This document shows, piece by piece, positions 12,816 to 46,911 of a DNA stretch of 64,000 nucleotides. The stretch spans positions 3,429-67,428 of the forward strand of contig QIJH01000218.1 in the NCBI GenBank assembly GCA_003232725.1, given 5' to 3'. The notes beneath the pieces are model-generated. The model did not search any database, was not told the DNA's origin, and saw only the letters and a program-made list of their open reading frames with translations. Positions within the stretch are counted from its first letter, which is position 1. Every line of letters starts with the position of its first letter. The position numbers and the translations under genes are program-made. This DNA is from Chromatiaceae bacterium. Its GTDB lineage: Bacteria > Pseudomonadota > Gammaproteobacteria > SZUA-140.

Positions 12816-13691
12816 TCACTGCCGAATTTGATTTCCCTCATTCTGATCATCGCGCCGAAAGAGATTATGATCCGCTAAGTACTCAAGAAAGCCACCACCA
12901 TCCCAATAAGTATACACCCCACCACTGCCACCCTGGTCTGGGCCAGTAGTATACGTATATTGCCCACCACTGACCGTTTGCTTAACCAGAGACTTATCGC
13001 TAAAGAAAGTCGGAATGGCATTGTTATCATAATCACCCTGGTCGCCAAAATTATCTGTCAGCAACTCAAATTGGTTTGAAACAATCCCAGGGGTATCTAT
13101 CGTGCCATAATCGATCATGCTCATGTCGATCTGGAAATCCATTCTCACATCAGCATTGGTGATCAGCTGGCTAATTAATGGCTTAAACTGAAGGCTATCC
13201 TTCAAAAACCACTGAGTAATTTCCTCATCCTTGATCATAGTTCTCATCACCACTCGCCTCGGGTTACCTGAACCACTTCCGTTAGCTAATCCACCAAGAC
13301 TATTACTGGCCGACCTGGGGAATGGGTCATAGAATCGACTCGCCTGATAACAGCAACCACTGGCATCGATGTAAACCTCTTGAGCAAAATCGCTATCTAA
13401 ATCACCAATAATTGAATGGTAATAGCGAATACCATCAATATAAACCACTTCCTGCAGGAACGGGGTTGGATCCGTGTATCGAGCATTACTACCACCCAAG
13501 GCACAACGCAATTCAGTCCCCCCGCGATTACAATCGATCGTTAAAACAGGATCCTCAGCCTCATTGACAAAACCAAGCTGAAAACCAGATTGTTCCGCCC
13601 AAGAGATGCTCACACACCAGATTCCAGCTAAAGCTGAAAACATGCCTATAAAGGCTTTATTTAACATTACACCCACCCTTAAACACTTCAA
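12816..13691 (-). CDS. secreted hypothetical protein (signal peptide; Gly/Tyr/Asp-rich C-terminus)
   Basis: Hydrophobic N-terminus ...FIGMFSALAGIWCVSISWA-EQ. No recognised domain. Flanked upstream by about 250 bp of AT-rich DNA. Confidence 0.55.
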   Translation of the reverse strand: MKCLRVGVMLNKAFIGMFSALAGIWCVSISWAEQSGFQLGFVNEAEDPVLTIDCNRGGTELRCALGGSNARYTDPTPFLQEVVYIDGIRYYHSIIGDLDSDFAQEVYIDASGCCYQASRFYDPFPRSASNSLGGLANGSGSGNPRRVVMRTMIKDEEITQWFLKDSLQFKPLISQLITNADVRMDFQIDMSMIDYGTIDTPGIVSNQFELLTDNFGDQGDYDNNAIPTFFSDKSLVKQTVSGGQYTYTTGPDQGGSGGVYTYWDGGGFLEYLADHNLFRRDDQNEGNQIRQ

Positions 13692-13942: not shown

Positions 13943-14965
13943 CTATTCTAATTTTTGAGCGCGCTCAAATAATGCACTTACCGCATTCCGAGGAGGGCAC
14001 CCTTCGTACAAAACACGATACACTTGCTCTGCAATCGGCATCTCGACACCACACTGACGTGCCAGCAACAGCACCTCTCTGGCCGCCTGCACACCCTCAA
14101 CCGCCTGACCGATCGATTGCAGTGCCTGCTCCAACGTCTTGCCCTGTGCAAGCGCCAATCCCATCCGTCGATTACGTGACTGATTATCAGTACAGGTCAA
14201 TACCAGGTCACCCAGACCAGCCAAACCAGTAAAGGTATCCGCCTGCCCACCCAGCTCGACTCCCAGGCGCGTAATTTCAGCTAAGCCTCGCGTGATTAAT
14301 GCCGCACGTGCGTTCGCACCAAAGCCAAGCCCATCAGAAATACCCGCTGCGATTGCCAGCACGTTCTTAACAGCCCCGCCCACCTCAACACCCACCACAT
14401 CACTTGAACGATAGGCACGAAAGCAATCATTACTCAGCGCATCAGAAATATCTTGAGAAAATTGAGAATCGCCCGAAGCGACCGTTAGCGCCGTCGGCAA
14501 ACCAAGCGCAACTTCATGCGCAAAACTAGGCCCCGACACAACCGCAAACGACACCTCATCACCACAAACTTCTGCGGCAACCTGATGCAGCAATTTACCA
14601 CTACCAGGATCGAATCCTTTTGTGGCCCATGAGAGCCTTGCAGCCGTCCCCATTACAGGCCGGCACAGTGTCAGTACGGAACGAAATGCCTCGCTTGGCA
14701 CGACAACCATAATATCACCACAGATCTCCAGCACCTGCCTTAGATCAGCATTGATACTCAGACGATCAGGAAATGCTATATCAGGAAGAAAAGCAACATT
14801 ACGGCGCTGCTCTTGCATCCACGCAACTTGAGCAACATCATGACTCCACAAAACCACATCACGCCCATTGCGTGCGATCAATATAGCGAGTGCACTCCCC
14901 CACGAACCAGCACCTAACAGTGCAATTGGTAACTGAGAATGAGGCACCACTTCTCTGTCCAACAT
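13943..14965 (-). CDS. gpsA: NAD(P)H-dependent glycerol-3-phosphate dehydrogenase
   Basis: IALLGAGSWGSALAILIARNG Rossmann motif. Full-length 340 aa. secB-gpsA synteny. Confidence 0.93.
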   Translation of the reverse strand: MLDREVVPHSQLPIALLGAGSWGSALAILIARNGRDVVLWSHDVAQVAWMQEQRRNVAFLPDIAFPDRLSINADLRQVLEICGDIMVVVPSEAFRSVLTLCRPVMGTAARLSWATKGFDPGSGKLLHQVAAEVCGDEVSFAVVSGPSFAHEVALGLPTALTVASGDSQFSQDISDALSNDCFRAYRSSDVVGVEVGGAVKNVLAIAAGISDGLGFGANARAALITRGLAEITRLGVELGGQADTFTGLAGLGDLVLTCTDNQSRNRRMGLALAQGKTLEQALQSIGQAVEGVQAAREVLLLARQCGVEMPIAEQVYRVLYEGCPPRNAVSALFERAQKLE

Positions 14966-19685: not shown

Positions 19686-21005
19686 ATGGAGTGGAAAACA
19701 TCAATGCTACCTCAATCACGTAATATCCTGTTAGTGCTAATGGGGCTGGTAATAGGCTTCTCTTTGACCATCGGCCAACATGTATTTGCAGAGCGCGACG
19801 ATAACAACGCCCTTCCACTCGAAGAGCTGCGCGCCTTTACCGAAGTCTTCGCCAATATCAAAAATAACTATGTTGAAGATATCACTGACAAAGAGCTGCT
19901 GGAAAATGCCATTCGCGGTATGCTTTCGGGCTTGGATCCCCACTCATCCTATCTGGATGCTGATGCCTACAAAGAACTACGGGTCGGCACCTCTGGTGAA
20001 TTTGGCGGCCTTGGTATCGAGGTCAGCATGGAAGATGGCTTTGTAAAAGTCGTATCCCCCATTGATGATACTCCCGCTGATGCCGCAGGCATCAAAGCAG
20101 GCGACCTCATTATCCGTCTCGATGACACCCCCATAAAAGGACTCACACTCCGTGAAGCCGTCAACCTCATGCGCGGCAAACCGGGTAGCGACATCTTACT
20201 CACGATCGTTCGTGATGGCACCAATAGACCACTGAAAGTCACCATCACCCGCGACATCATTCAAGTTAAAAGCATTAAGTACGAAAGCCTCGAGCCTGGT
20301 TTTGGTTACGTACGCATTACCCAGTTTCAGTCTCACACCGGTAGCGACCTTAAAAAAGCAATCAACGAATTAAAGAAAGAGAATGATGGCGCGCTTAATG
20401 GGTTGATTCTTGACCTGCGTAACAACCCCGGCGGCGTATTAAACGCAGCATTCGAGGTATCAGATACCTTTCTAGAGCAGGGCATGATCGTCTACACCGA
20501 AGGACGCATTGATGACTCTGCCCTTGAATTCAAGGCCACACCTAATGACAGCCTCGAAGGGGCACCACTTATCGTACTGATTAACAGTGGCTCAGCTTCT
20601 GCGTCAGAAATTGTCGCAGGTGCACTGCAAGACCACAAACGCGCCGTCATCATGGGAAGCAAATCATTTGGCAAAGGCTCGGTGCAAACAATTCTGCCGA
20701 TGAACAACGGCGCAGCACTCAAACTCACAACTGCTCGCTACTTCACCCCTGCAGGTCGCTCGATTCAGGCCGAAGGTATCGTGCCGGACATTCCGCTTGA
20801 TCGGATCAATCTAACGGCCGCAAACGAACCTGAATTTGCGCCCGTCACTGAAGCGGATCTTGCTGGCCACCTGGACAGCGGCCAAGAGAGCAGAGGAAAT
20901 GATGCGGTTAATATTCAACAAGAGGAAAAACATCGCGTCGACCAAGACTACCAACTCTACGAAGCACTCAATCTGCTAAAAGGGCTGCACATCCTCATTA
21001 AATAA
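19686..21005 (+). CDS. ctpA: carboxy-terminal processing protease (S41 family, CtpA/Prc-like)
   Basis: N-terminal TM/signal, PDZ domain (GGLGIEV...GDLIIRLDDTPIKGLT), S41 catalytic region (LILDLRNNPGGVLNAA; GSASASEIVAGALQDHKRAVIMGSKSFGKGSVQ). Confidence 0.9.
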   Translation: MEWKTSMLPQSRNILLVLMGLVIGFSLTIGQHVFAERDDNNALPLEELRAFTEVFANIKNNYVEDITDKELLENAIRGMLSGLDPHSSYLDADAYKELRVGTSGEFGGLGIEVSMEDGFVKVVSPIDDTPADAAGIKAGDLIIRLDDTPIKGLTLREAVNLMRGKPGSDILLTIVRDGTNRPLKVTITRDIIQVKSIKYESLEPGFGYVRITQFQSHTGSDLKKAINELKKENDGALNGLILDLRNNPGGVLNAAFEVSDTFLEQGMIVYTEGRIDDSALEFKATPNDSLEGAPLIVLINSGSASASEIVAGALQDHKRAVIMGSKSFGKGSVQTILPMNNGAALKLTTARYFTPAGRSIQAEGIVPDIPLDRINLTAANEPEFAPVTEADLAGHLDSGQESRGNDAVNIQQEEKHRVDQDYQLYEALNLLKGLHILIK

Positions 21006-21016
21006 TAGTAAACAGC

Positions 21017-21186
21017 TAGTAACTATTCAGTTCACTCCTGAAATTTGTCATTTCTGCATTGAAAAATGATCATTTACACCTGTAAACTCATATTTTTCGC
21101 CTTGCATCCGAGGGCATAAAGAAACTGCCAAATTTCAGCAGCAATCTGAATGACATGGCTCTCTTTCACTATGCTGAATAGTTACA
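21017..21186. repeat. MITE-like inverted-repeat element, long copy (about 170 bp)
   Basis: 5' end tagtaactattcagttcactcctgaaat and 3' end tatgctgaatagttaca are shared with the element at 46408-46479. The termini are inverted repeats of each other (gtaactattcag / ctgaatagttac). Intergenic, between ctpA and yibQ. Confidence 0.6.
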
Positions 21187-21212
21187 ACAGCTAAAATAAA
21201 TTAACATCAACC

Positions 21213-22106
21213 ATGACTCTACGCCTAATACTCACGCTGCTGCTTGTTATCAGCACCACCAAACCGGGGCTGGCGGGCGATGCAAAGCTCGGCTTTGAGC
21301 GCCCGCCCGCCACTAACACCCAACAACCACTGCCTGCTATCAGTATTATCATTGATGACCTTGGCGAACAGCGCGTACTCGGTGAACGCGCCATTGCACT
21401 GCCCGGTGAAATCACCTATGCATTCCTGCCACATACCAGCCATGCCGTTCATCTGGCTGAGTTGGCACACCAGCTAAACAGAGAGGTGATGATACACATA
21501 CCGATGCAACCGGTCGGCGATAGCAGCCTCGGTAAAGGCGGGCTCACGCTCGACATGTCACAACAAAATTTTATTGCAACATTGAAAGACAATCTCAATG
21601 CCATTCCCCATATCAGCGGCATTAACAATCATATGGGCAGCCTGCTAACCCAACATCCAGAAAAGATGGTCTGGCTAATGCAAACACTCAGTGAAGAGCA
21701 TGATGATCTGTTTTTTGTCGATAGCCGCACCACTGAACACACCGTCGCCTATACCATCGCAGCCGAATTTGAGATCCCAAGAATAAACCGCAATGTATTC
21801 CTTGATAACATTCGCACTAAAAAGGAGATCGGCATACAGTTTAAACGACTACTCATCCTTGCAAAGCGTCACGGCACCGCCGTTGCCATTGGCCACCCTT
21901 ATCCAGAGACTCTCAAGTTTCTCGAGCAGATGCTACCCGCACTCCAACAGCAGGGTATCGAGCTAATCAAAACCTCCAGCCTCATCAAGCGTAAGCACCT
22001 ACTCGAGACCACTACCCCAGACACCATGCTCGCCGCAAAAGAGCGTCATAACAAAATAGGACTACCTCATACCGCTGAATCGCGAGCAACTTCGCTCATC
22101 CAGTAA
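21213..22106 (+). CDS. yibQ: divergent polysaccharide deacetylase family protein (YibQ-like)
   Basis: Signal peptide, ISIIIDDLGEQ...YAFLPHT...IHIPMQP...INNHMGS motifs of the YibQ family. Synteny with envC/ctpA. Confidence 0.85.
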   Translation: MTLRLILTLLLVISTTKPGLAGDAKLGFERPPATNTQQPLPAISIIIDDLGEQRVLGERAIALPGEITYAFLPHTSHAVHLAELAHQLNREVMIHIPMQPVGDSSLGKGGLTLDMSQQNFIATLKDNLNAIPHISGINNHMGSLLTQHPEKMVWLMQTLSEEHDDLFFVDSRTTEHTVAYTIAAEFEIPRINRNVFLDNIRTKKEIGIQFKRLLILAKRHGTAVAIGHPYPETLKFLEQMLPALQQQGIELIKTSSLIKRKHLLETTTPDTMLAAKERHNKIGLPHTAESRATSLIQ

Positions 22107-25249: not shown

Positions 25250-25609
25250 CCGTCACCTTCTGGCACAATACGTTCATGCCCGGCATCAATAAGACGCTGT
25301 AGATATGCCTGCCACATCGCTTCTTGATTCTGCCCCACACGGTAAAGGAACTCCCACGAAAAAAGCCCCGTGTTATGGCCATCATCAAAGTGAAGTTTCA
25401 CCGCATAAGCGCCAATCGGCTCAATCTCTGTAATATTGACCGCCTCTTTACCCACCTGCAGTGTCTCTTGCCCCACACCATGCCCCTGTACCTCAGAATT
25501 CACACGGCAAACGAAACTCTGCGCCGTTATTAAAGATCACTTCCAGCACCCGTGATTTTTGGTGCAGGCGAATATCGGTCGGGCGATGTTTTTTTGTTTG
25601 TACAGTCAT
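25246..25609 (-). pseudogene. DUF971 family protein, split between two frames
   Basis: N-terminal 38 codons (MTVQTKKHRPTDIRLHQKSRVLEVIFNNGAEFRLPCEF*, 25493-25609, AAGAG RBS) and C-terminal 85 codons (GTG at 25503: NSEVQGHGVGQETLQVGKEAVNITEIEPIGAYAVKLHFDDGHNTGLFSWEFLYRVG...). Together they make a normal-length DUF971, but in different frames. About six codons (LRVYSP-like) seem to be missing at the junction. Confidence 0.55.
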
Positions 25610-25630
25610 CTATTTCAATACTCTTAACAA

Positions 25631-26974
25631 TTAAAGGATATAACGGCTTAAATCTTCATCCTCAACCAGCTTACCAAGATGCAATTCAACATAATCGACA
25701 TCGATCGTGACGCTAGTACCAGAAAGATCGGATGCCTCATAAGACAGCTTTTCAAGCAGACGTTCCAGTACCGTATGCAAACGACGCGCACCGATATTTT
25801 CAGTTCGCTCATTCACCTGCCATGCCACTTCCGCCACGCGCGCAATCCCATCGGTCGTAAATTCAACAGTCAACCCTTCCGCTTCAAGCAGCGCGTTATA
25901 TTGCTCCGTAAGCGATGCATTAGGCTCAGTCAGAATACGCACAAAATCACCGACCGATAGCGCACTCAATTCAACACGAATCGGTAAACGTCCCTGCAGT
26001 TCAGGCACAAGATCAGAAGGTTTAGCAAGATGAAAGGCTCCGGAGGCAATAAACAGAATATGATCTGTTTTGATCATGCCAAACTTGGTCGAAACGGTAC
26101 AACCCTCAACCAACGGCAAGAGATCACGCTGCACCCCTTCGCGCGAGATATCTGCTCCACCGCCACCACCGCTATCACTGCGCTTGGTGATCTTATCGAT
26201 CTCATCAATAAAGACGATGCCATGCTGCTCGGCACGCTCTAGCGCTGCAGCCTTAATGCCCTCTTCATCCAGCAACTTAGCAGCCTCTTCTTCGCGCAAC
26301 ACGTTAAACGCTTCACGAATCGGCAGGCGTTGTTTCTTAGTGCGCTGGTTACCCATATTTTGAAACAATCCCTGCAGCTGACTGCTCATATCTTCCATAC
26401 CGGGCGGGGCCATAATTTCAACCCCTGCAGCACCCATGCTTACTTCGATTTCAATCTCTTTATCATCAAGGTCGCCTTCACGCAGTTTTTTACGGAATTT
26501 TTGACGTGTCGAGGAGCTATCACCAGTGCGCTGCACCGCACCATCAGCACCACGCGCAGGCGGTAACAAAATATCAAGAATACGCTCCTCCGCCGCATCT
26601 TCTGCACGATGCTTCATTTTCTTCATTTCAGTTTCACGCGTCAGCTTAATTGACACTTCCACCAGATCCCGGATGATCGATTCAACATCACGCCCAACAT
26701 AACCGACCTCAGTAAACTTGGTCGCTTCGACTTTGATAAATGGTGCATTCGCCAGCCTTGCAAGACGACGGGCAATCTCGGTTTTACCCACACCGGTCGG
26801 ACCGATCATTAAAATATTTTTCGGCGTCACTTCGTTACGCAGTTCTTCATTACTGATCTGTGCACGACGCCAGCGATTTCTCAGCGCAATCGCCACTGCA
26901 CGCTTCGCATCGTTTTGACCGATAATATGTTTGTCCAGTTCCTGGACGATCTCTCTAGGTGTCATTTCAGACAT
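25631..26974 (-). CDS. hslU: ATP-dependent protease ATPase subunit HslU
   Basis: [37 protein letters not shown]...[19 protein letters not shown]...[11 protein letters not shown]. 447 aa. Confidence 0.95.
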
Positions 26975-45364: not shown

Positions 45365-45862
45365 TCAATCCTTGTTTCTAACCGTCTCTACGCCAAAAAA
45401 TAGCACCATCTGATCGCCAATCGCTGGCAATGCAAAGTTCATATCAAAATCTGAACGCTTGAATTTAGCAGTGACATCAAAGCCACACACGTACTTCTCT
45501 TTTTTTAGGGTCCAGCGGGTGGACACCACAATGAATACTTTCCACTTCCAGCACAGCATGCTTTGTCACACCCAGGATGGTTAAATCACCCTAGGAGCCA
45601 TCTTGCCTCCTTTATGAAACTCAACGGTCTTCGCTTGATAGGTGATCGCCGGAAACTCCATCGCATTCAGAAAGTCGATTGAACGCAGGTGGTCGTCACG
45701 TTTCCCCATGCAGGTATAAACGGACGCCGCATCGATCACAATATCAATCGAGCCTATGCTCGCCTTTCGATCCATCGTGCCGCACAATGCGCTCGCGCCT
45801 ATTGACGCCCTATTCCCCTTATGAAGGCGGAACAGGTTAAAAATAGACCGCTTACTCTGCAT
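45365..45862 (-). pseudogene. yceI: YceI-family (polyisoprenoid-binding) protein pseudogene: N-terminally truncated, at least two frameshifts
   Basis: Three frame pieces: ...IDAASVYTCMGKRDDHLRSIDFLNAMEFPAITYQAKTVEF; GDLTILGVTKHAVLEVESIHCGVHPLDPKK; KEKYVCGFDVTAKFKRSDFDMNFALPAIGDQMVLFFGVETV. Joined, they reproduce the YceI fold order. One shift falls in an A7/T7 run (45497-45505). The N-terminal signal-peptide region is absent. Confidence 0.65.
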
Positions 45863-46327
45863 CTAACGATAATATTTTTGCCACTCGTCTTTCGTGATTT
45901 TATACAGGACATGCTCTCTAAGGGGGTTACCCTCTGGAATAATAGGATGTTCAAAATTATCACCGGTGTCTGTCATTCCCAGGCGCGTCATCACTTGCCA
46001 TGATTTTTTATTGGTGACAGATGCAAACGAATAGAGCTTATCGAGCCCTAGCTCAGTGAAGGCAAACCTCATCGCCTCTTTAGCTGCCTCTGAGGCATAG
46101 CCACGCCCCCAGAATTCACTTCTCAAACGTCAACCAATTTCGACACAGCGCGATACTGGCAAGTCGTAGGTAGGCTTGTGCAGCCCGACAAAGCCGATGA
46201 ACTCTCCATCCACAATGGTTTCAGCAGCCCAGAGCCCCCACGATCTCTCTGTTATAAGCCGCTTTATTTTTTCAGCCATGGCATCACTCTCTTCACGGCT
46301 CAAAGTATTGGGGTAATACTTCATCAC
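45863..46327 (-). pseudogene. GNAT N-acetyltransferase (RimJ/RimL-like) interrupted by a single in-frame TGA at a conserved Trp position
   Basis: The 65-codon piece (..SWGLWAAETIVDGEFIGFVGLHKPT...CVEIG) and 87-codon piece (RLRSEFWGRGYASEAAKEAMRFAFTELGLDKLY...) are contiguous in the same frame, separated only by TGA where the EIGW.L motif expects Trp (TGG). Confidence 0.7.
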
Positions 46328-46407
46328 CTGTAACTACTCAGCGAGTAGTCAAAATTAACAGTGACTGCTCAGCTAACCCATCAACTCCCAGCATCTCATA
46401 AAAAATT

Positions 46408-46479
46408 TAGTAACTATTCAGTTCACTCCTGAAATCTGAATAGTTATATACCCATCTTCCATTATGCTGAATAGTTACA
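46408..46479. repeat. MITE-like inverted-repeat element, short copy (72 bp)
   Basis: Same 28-bp 5' end and 17-bp 3' end as 21017-21186. The interior is reduced to a second partial TIR copy (ctgaatagttata). Confidence 0.6.
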
Positions 46480-46911
46480 AAATTTATTATGCGCTACCCC
46501 GACAACATACTCTGTTTTATCTTCCAAGCACCCCTGTCAACTCGTAAATAATTTAAAGAGGAATGGACAGCGACGCTCCCGGGTTTCGCTTGCGCTCAAC
46601 CCAGGCTACACATATCAAATACCGTCATTCCGGCCAATAAGAATGGTGGGGGGGTGCCGGGATCAGGGTAAGCTGATCTCTGGTCCCAATCAATTCCAGC
46701 ACAAAACTTGATGAGCACTCGCAATAACACACCAATAAAAACTTAAACCTACTTGTTTTGAATGTAGCTGAGTGCTAGTTTAACGAAAAGGCCATCTATT
46801 TTTGAGCGGCGTAAAAATGCCCTAAATATACAATGTATGGCTGTCATATATCACAACCACACACGGCTGCATATCAACCGCTAATTCACTTAGCGATAGA
46901 GGAGTATCAAA

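Follow-up and report, generated by a model that had tools for sequence, protein, structure and literature searches.

The IS66 family is abundant and its mechanism is poorly understood. In the ISfinder family tables, ends that open with GTAA point to this family when the target duplication measures 8 bp. Its ISBst12 group is represented by ISDge4 of Deinococcus geothermalis, a single-ORF element with terminal inverted repeats (TIRs) GTGACTACTCAGCA/GTAACTGCTCAGCA and an 8-bp direct repeat, for which transposition has been observed (PMC12898284), and one IS66/ISBst12 element is listed for plasmid pHTA426 of Geobacillus kaustophilus (PMC8024623). Among the classical bacterial MITEs, MITEAba12 of Acinetobacter has been described (PMC6382973), and a 2024 review of prokaryotic MITEs makes no mention of IS66 or ISBst12 (PMC10969869). 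The Rfam family RF01699, or ‘Clostridiales-1 RNA’, is a motif of unknown function (Weinberg et al. 2010; PMC2864571). In the literature searched, with ISfinder outside its scope, no description of IS66- or ISBst12-derived MITEs was found, and the literal 12-mer that ends the repeats analysed here was detected in papers as unrelated primer sequences only. A survey of the Paracoccus mobilome reportedly combines IS66/ISBst12 and MITE terms.

We analysed a stretch of 64,000 nucleotides from a Chromatiaceae bacterium (hereafter the window, 64 kb) that contains two intergenic copies of a short repeat. Both copies are very likely MITEs that depend for their mobility on a DDE transposase supplied in trans, from the ISBst12 group of the IS66 family. 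The original prediction placed them at 21017–21186 and 46408–46479, with lengths of 170 and 72 bp; the locations and the two size variants stand, while the exact ends and lengths, defined by the target-site duplications (TSDs), are 21019–21185 (167 bp) and 46410–46478 (69 bp). Two bases at the left end (‘ta’) and one at the right (‘a’) had been counted in; they belong to the TSDs, which happen to share them. The features are as follows.

21011–21018: left TSD of copy 1, AACAGCTA, identical to 21186–21193; orthologous empty sites have a single AACAACTA-like copy
21019–21185, forward strand: putative MITE copy 1, full-length family member, 167 bp
21019–21030, forward strand: left TIR of copy 1, GTAACTATTCAG, 12 of 12 bases identical to the IRL of ISBst12-group ISs
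Near 21097–21120: extra lineage-specific hairpin of copy 1, roughly 23 bp
21146–21155, forward strand: degenerate inner right end of copy 1, CTGAATG-ACA, aligning with the inner CTGAACAGTTAC of the family
21174–21185, forward strand: outer right TIR of copy 1, CTGAATAGTTAC
21186–21193: right TSD of copy 1, AACAGCTA
46402–46409: left TSD of copy 2, AAAATTTA, identical to 46479–46486
46410–46478, forward strand: putative MITE copy 2, 69 bp, internal-deletion derivative as judged by alignment and fold
46410–46421, forward strand: left TIR of copy 2
46436–46447, forward strand: inner right end of copy 2, CTGAATAGTTAT
46467–46478, forward strand: outer right TIR of copy 2
46479–46486: right TSD of copy 2, AAAATTTA

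The ends of each copy are, as predicted, inverted repeats of one another, forming the perfect 12-bp TIR GTAACTATTCAG/CTGAATAGTTAC. Exact matches to the 12-mer GTAACTATTCAG were detected at four positions (21019 and 46410 on the forward strand, 21174 and 46467 on the reverse strand) and nowhere else in the window, compared with a chance expectation for one 12-mer of approximately 0.008 in 128 kb (both strands). Repeat comparison of the window recovered the 28-nt 5′ block and the 17-nt 3′ block common to both copies (repeat families D8 and D17), and two copies are countable in the 64 kb. Outside the TIRs, the flanks of the copies are unrelated, save for one or two coincidental bases of two different duplications. 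The subterminal 30–60 bp of the MITE begin with GTAACTATTCAGTTCACTCCTGAAAT. The intergenic position of both copies agreed with the ORF map, and neither copy wholly contains an ORF of 50 aa or more. The check for target-site duplications gave a result overlooked in the original prediction: copy 1 is bracketed by a perfect 8-bp direct repeat, AACAGCTA, and copy 2 by another, AAAATTTA. REPs are headed by GTAG and require a Y1 HUH enzyme, and the alternative of a REP-like repeat, offered together with the MITE reading, is unsupported because REPs make no target duplications. REP/RAYT repeats were rejected on two grounds, namely, the 8-bp duplications and the ends reading GTAAC.

Copy 1 is located inside the envC-ctpA-yibQ cluster, between a C-terminal processing peptidase gene (ctpA, 19686–21005, forward strand) and a YibQ-type divergent polysaccharide deacetylase gene (21213–22106, forward strand), and lies 27 nt ahead of the start codon of yibQ. 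Integron attC core sites have the form RYYYAAC ... GTTRRRY and lie between gene cassettes; this candidate was rejected, as the ends TAGTAAC ... GTTACAA misfit the core and the context consists of the housekeeping genes ctpA and yibQ, with no cassettes. Using YibQ homologues of 83–93% identity, we identified seven orthologous loci (L136–L142), and in all seven the ctpA-yibQ spacer measures 29–32 bp, versus 207 bp in the window. Subtraction of copy 1 and one repeat from the window spacer leaves TAGTAAACAGCTAAAATAAATTAACATCAACC, which is collinear with TAGTCAACAACTAAAACAAATTAACATCAACA of L140; the spacers of L136 and L137 are likewise similar to this remainder. The ctpA-yibQ locus is a classical pair of a filled and an empty site. 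One orthologous locus carries another family copy between two genes (L137, 14590–14731), which is missing at the same site in L138 (approximately 14419–14441) and in the window (25414–25890). The right terminus of this copy is the inner right TIR and its flanks contain no clean 8-bp duplication, and it was counted solely as a presence/absence polymorphism.

Copy 2 sits in the leader of a GNAT gene, upstream of its GNAT-like ORF, which is on the minus strand and starts at 46327. On the minus strand at 46330–46372, abutting this start, we observed GTAACTACTCAG followed, after 19 nt, by GTGACTGCTCAG, which is the layout of a double right end in reverse; aligned locally with the family right ends in reverse complement, it scores 43–47. 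With moderate confidence only, this segment is probably the remnant of an older family copy, beside which copy 2 was inserted. The adjacent GNAT-like ORFs at 45863–46126 and 46130–46327 (minus strand) resemble a single acetyltransferase gene broken by a stop codon or a frameshift, and the YceI-like ORFs at 45365–45862 look fragmentary too; the region of 45.3–47.4 kb appears to be decaying or variable. In the ORF-poor stretch to the right of copy 2, a single REP-like, GTAG-headed hairpin, GTAGCCTGGGTTGAGCGCAAGCGAAACCCGGG, was noted at 46578–46609 on the minus strand, and a second copy of it was found neither in the window nor among the fetched loci.

When representative genomes were scanned for exact matches to the left 20-mer, only two MAG contigs were detected. 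In the contig of Gammaproteobacteria bacterium SZUA-128 (L001), a single copy is present, flanked by the duplication CTTTTTTC, and that of Sedimenticola sp. (L002) carries three TIR-bounded elements within 8 kb, two of which belong to the family of the window copies and show the duplications CCACTCA (7/8) and CAAAAAAG. The third element (L002, 1387–1548) shares these ends and is flanked by a perfect duplication, AGTTTTTC, with a wholly different interior, in which an inverted pair of REP-like GTAGGATGTGGTGAGCTTGCGAACCGCATC units was observed; this element is a chimera of two repeat kinds. The family was recovered from L001, L002, L046, L060, L068 and L137, and the copies in L001, L002 and L137 lie at unrelated loci, so that the search for more copies in related genomes came out in favour of the original prediction. 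By alignment, full-length members measure approximately 150 bp. The right end of the family is double, with an inner end, CTGAACAGTTAC, located 19 nt inside the outer CTGAATAGTTAC and conserved in this form in L002, L046 and L068. The internal partial TIR duplication that had been noticed in copy 2 is present (CTGAATAGTTAT, 46436–46447) and, on the alignment, is a family feature, namely, the second inner right end. Copy 2 is made up of the left 26 nt, a junction with AAT microhomology, the inner right end, a 19-nt spacer and the outer right end; judged from this structure, it is an internal-deletion derivative of a full-length family member.

The same termini are widespread in metagenomes. The pattern GTAACTATTCAG-N(120–150)-CTGAATAGTTAC was detected at 120 or more metagenome loci, with 33–69% G+C and with human-gut, soil and aquatic samples represented among the matches listed. 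Among these matches, perfect 8-bp duplications flank 59 of the 124 unique elements, versus approximately 0.5 with permuted partners; duplications with one mismatch flank 13 of the 124, versus 0.4, and a 9-bp register fits none of them. The duplicated targets of these listed elements contain 76% A+T, versus 56% in the flanks, with A predominating over the first half and T over the second, roughly NAAWWTTN. The interiors fall into 47 unrelated clusters among the matches listed, with the window's family forming cluster 3 (seven members). At one locus (L062, 1695–5191), two direct 163-bp MITE copies surround genes for a LytTR response regulator, a histidine kinase and an outer-membrane protein, and the 8-bp duplication GATTGTTC is present outside only. 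The segment is a MITE-based composite transposon that moved as a unit with a two-component system as cargo. A candidate 2.6-kb element between two ends (L039, 6851–9458) was rejected, with housekeeping genes inside and no duplication.

Transposase genes were sought in the same DNA. No IS66-like ORF was detected in the 64-kb window by tblastn and motif scan. The loci with MITEs, approximately 0.9 Mb from metagenomes and genomes, likewise gave none by tblastn, motif scan and inspection of solo ends; the 12 loci inspected contained no transposase inside solo ends. With none in the window, mobilisation would therefore have to occur in trans. When the MITEs were compared with plasmids and phages by BLAST, no annotated IS ends were found, and the partial matches in four unannotated ‘Bacteriophage sp.’ gut contigs are degenerate copies without transposase. 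Two unannotated ‘Bacteriophage sp.’ contigs from human faeces, MT838621.1 and MT839705.1, contain near full-length cluster-1 elements; these MITEs are carried by phages, or else the contigs are of bacterial origin.

The lack of a transposase in the window and beside any MITE gives some room to the possibility that the copies are fossil MITEs, whose ISBst12-type transposase has since been lost from the genome and which are now immobile hairpins, perhaps co-opted as mRNA structure. The internal deletion of copy 2 and the degenerate remnant at 46330–46372 fit such a history. However, both window copies retain perfect TIRs and perfect 8-bp duplications, and copies are polymorphic between genomes with 91–93% YibQ identity, which points to recent activity in the lineage. 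Moreover, the absence of a transposase near MITEs is weak evidence, because multi-copy ISs usually drop from metagenome assemblies; the metagenome contigs that do carry a transposase are mostly IS-only fragments of 1.5 kb. We therefore regard the fossil history as possible but distinctly less probable than mobilisation in trans by an ISBst12-group enzyme.

The pHTA426 element measures 1635 bp, with the IRL GTAACTATTCAGCCCG, identical at 12 of 12 positions to the window ends, the IRR GTATCTATTCAGCCCA and a perfect 8-bp duplication, AACTCGTC. Its 485-aa ORF contains PF03050 DDE_Tnp_IS66 (1.9e-64), zf-IS66 and DUF6444, with a match to NF033517 at 1.5e-99, and precomputed Pfam domains give the same set in 120 relatives. 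A tblastn search with this protein gave 192 plasmid records, of which eight were fetched, and the ends were definable in six.

G. thermoleovorans: 1613 bp, ends GTAACTATTCAGCC / GTAACTATTCACCC, duplication ATTTTCAT
Paraburkholderia: 1477 bp, ends GTAACTATTCAGCG on both sides (the exact 12-mer), duplication GCCGCCGC
B. thuringiensis: 1630 bp, ends GTAACTACTCAGCTT, duplication 7/8
Planococcus: 1549 bp, ends GTAACTACTTAGGT, duplication perfect
Bradyrhizobium: 1547 bp, ends GTAACTGCCCAGGT, duplication perfect
Acaryochloris: 1551 bp, ends GTTACTGCCCAGGCT, duplication perfect

Homologues of the Paraburkholderia enzyme led to further elements with the exact 12-mer at both ends (L143–L153): nine copies measure 1471 bp and one is 1516 bp long. 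The autonomous elements with the window's ends are those of pHTA426, pLDW-1, Paraburkholderia and L143–L153. They occur in Geobacillus, in Paraburkholderia and on environmental contigs, and hence in several phyla, and all are 1.47–1.64 kb in length with a single ORF and 8-bp duplications. The full 12-mer is identical in five independent single-ORF ISBst12-type elements and matches the rest at 9–11 of 12 positions; the variants, such as GTAACTACTCAG (Bacillus), GTAACTGCCCAG (Bradyrhizobium) and GTAACTACTTAG (Planococcus), differ from it at positions 7–10 only. The end consensus of the group is GTAACTRYYYAG (as a pair, GTAACTRYYYAG...CTRRRYAGTTAC), with an 8-bp duplication, and on this comparison the window ends are one of the commonest variants of the consensus. 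The search for an IS with matching TIRs, suggested in the original prediction, thus led to ISBst12-group IS66-family elements with identical 12-bp ends. An IS66 TnpC motif, used as a query, detected classical three-ORF IS66 elements only, among the 5000 or more matches listed. A side observation concerns the Burkholderiales IS of 1471–1477 bp (L132, L143–L152): GCCGCCGC or its complement flanks it at all of approximately 10 different sites, and the IS of L132 sits within a larger palindromic repeat. This arrangement suggests that the IS is highly specific for a REP-like target, whereas the MITEs are found in A/T-rich targets.

In the ISfinder family tables, more than one family makes 8-bp duplications, and the families ISL3, IS256, IS6 and IS1595, as well as classical three-ORF IS66, would each have to be considered as the source of the enzyme. 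The ends of the other 8-bp-duplicating families start with GG.., GA.. or CAGGG, which argues against them. Classical IS66 ends do begin with GTAA, for example, GTAAGCGTCCGG and GTAACCGTCCGG, but match the 12-mer only in the first four or five bases (PMC12888890). Given that five independent ISBst12-type elements end in exactly this 12-mer and that the rest agree with it at 9–11 of 12 positions, mobilisation by any of these other families is very improbable, and the ISBst12 group is the preferred source.

We also considered the secondary structure of the elements. As proposed in the original prediction, RNA folding of copy 1 gave a long foldback (−49.4 kcal/mol, z = −5.7), and the z range across the folds is −5.7 to −7.3; in the alignment, compensatory changes are present in 15 of the 48 predicted pairs of the family foldback. 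A promoter scan of copy 1 gave three weak sigma-70-like matches inside the element, and the terminator scan of its sense strand detected none, with no U-tract after the hairpin. The largest sister cluster, cluster 1, with 52 elements among the matches listed, mostly on gut Clostridia-like contigs, corresponds to RF01699. At L050, the match to RF01699 (13271–13403; 55.2 bits, gathering threshold 48) lies exactly inside the TIRs of an element at 13266–13408 with a perfect duplication, AATAAATT, while L036 (41.7) and L117 (25.6) score under the threshold. From this correspondence, the RF01699 motif is probably an ISBst12-type MITE subfamily. Perfect duplications flank 10 of the 46 unique members of cluster 1; because most copies of this gut cluster lack duplications, not every TIR-bounded element records a clean insertion. 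The window copies gave no match to RF01699 even at E ≤ 10, and thus none above its threshold, and in other Rfam families at permissive thresholds only meaningless microRNA-hairpin look-alikes.

The strong foldback, the compensatory changes and the catalogued sister cluster, a candidate sRNA in Rfam, would all be expected of a sequence kept in place by selection, be it a conserved gene for a structured RNA, a palindromic operator or a REP-like element, with no mobile DNA involved. Such an origin is nevertheless highly improbable: the 8-bp duplications and the empty orthologous site record insertion, the elements occur in both orientations at unrelated loci with no fixed gene neighbourhood, a composite transposon with cargo exists, and the window copies match no Rfam family. 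An operator palindrome was ruled out by the duplications and the empty site, which also speak against the attC, REP and segmental-duplication readings. That a segmental duplication made both copies is barely conceivable, as they share their ends only, the similarity stops exactly at the TIRs bar one or two coincidental bases, and the duplicated flanking DNA named in the original prediction as evidence against a mobile repeat was not what we found, the flanks being unrelated and the orthologous loci showing an empty site.

Taken together, the copies show TIRs, a TSD of fixed length, a small non-coding body, insertion at non-homologous sites with empty counterparts, and ends identical to those of autonomous elements, and the candidate partner group has GTAA ends that fit the consensus, an 8-bp TSD and a single-ORF DDE_Tnp_IS66 transposase. 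The MITE reading of the original prediction is hence supported by TSDs, by family copies elsewhere, by the empty site and by ISs with identical ends. In the proposed mechanism, an ISBst12-group DDE transposase encoded elsewhere would bind the 12-bp termini, with the inner right end as a possible second binding site or alternative terminus. The two strands of an A/T-rich target (approximately NAAWWTTN) would be cut 8 bp apart, allowing insertion of the element, and repair after insertion would create the 8-bp duplication. Copy 2 may have arisen from a full-length copy of approximately 150 bp by deletion between short direct repeats, leaving 69 bp with both ends kept. Judged by their intact ends and duplications, the window copies may currently be mobile. 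The foldback interior is predicted to form a strong hairpin in any transcript that crosses the element, and it could be a by-product of MITE evolution or itself be selected. On the same predicted structure, the copies may affect the expression of their neighbours (yibQ and the GNAT gene).

These assignments label two intergenic repeats of the window, and probably many more outside it, as mobile DNA, copies of which could alter expression or serve as recombination substrates. As natural minimal substrates that share 12 terminal bp, and sometimes a second inner end, the elements define what the transposase needs in cis, and the same collection defines its target preference, that is, 8 bp, A/T-rich, roughly NAAWWTTN. 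The probable placement of RF01699 as a MITE subfamily matters to curators of RNA families and to gut-metagenome annotation. As a tentative and rather unlikely extension, the 12-bp ISBst12-type end may define a cross-phylum MITE superfamily that includes Clostridiales-1, whose members have in common only the termini, a length of approximately 150 bp and an interior foldback that compensatory changes maintain, and in which the hairpin is possibly required. If so, the hairpin would be needed either for transposition, where an IS66-type enzyme might, for example, recognize a single-stranded or cruciform intermediate, or for an RNA function of the host or the element. A need for the hairpin in transposition would be a structural requirement undescribed for the IS66 family, and a catalogued ‘RNA gene’ would be reassigned to mobile DNA.

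Compared with known systems, the window elements belong to an ordinary class of selfish DNA and to a MITE group undescribed in the literature searched. They resemble the ISBst12 group (ISBst12, ISDge4 and the pHTA426 element) in their identical or near-identical termini (GTAACTATTCAG; GTAACTGCTCAGCA in ISDge4), in the 8-bp target duplication and in the 5′-GTAA ends. In contrast, the ISs of this group are autonomous, 1.47–1.64 kb in length, with one transposase ORF of approximately 450–485 aa, whereas the window elements, at 167 and 69 bp, are non-coding and share no sequence with them beyond the termini; past the terminal 12–16 bases, the MITE interior is unlike that of any IS examined. Classical bacterial MITEs, such as Correia of Neisseria and MITEAba12 of Acinetobacter, are likewise short, non-coding, intergenic, foldback-forming, multi-copy and trans-mobilised, with TIRs and TSDs, but differ in parent family and duplication length, the Correia element duplicating TA. 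The Clostridiales-1 RNA of RF01699 corresponds to elements of approximately 150 bp with the same GTAACTATTCAG ends, although the interiors of this sister cluster are unrelated to those of the window copies. Finally, REP/BIME repeats (RAYT, TnpA-REP) are also short intergenic palindromic repeats of gammaproteobacteria, whereas the window elements carry 8-bp duplications and DDE-type ends reading GTAAC.
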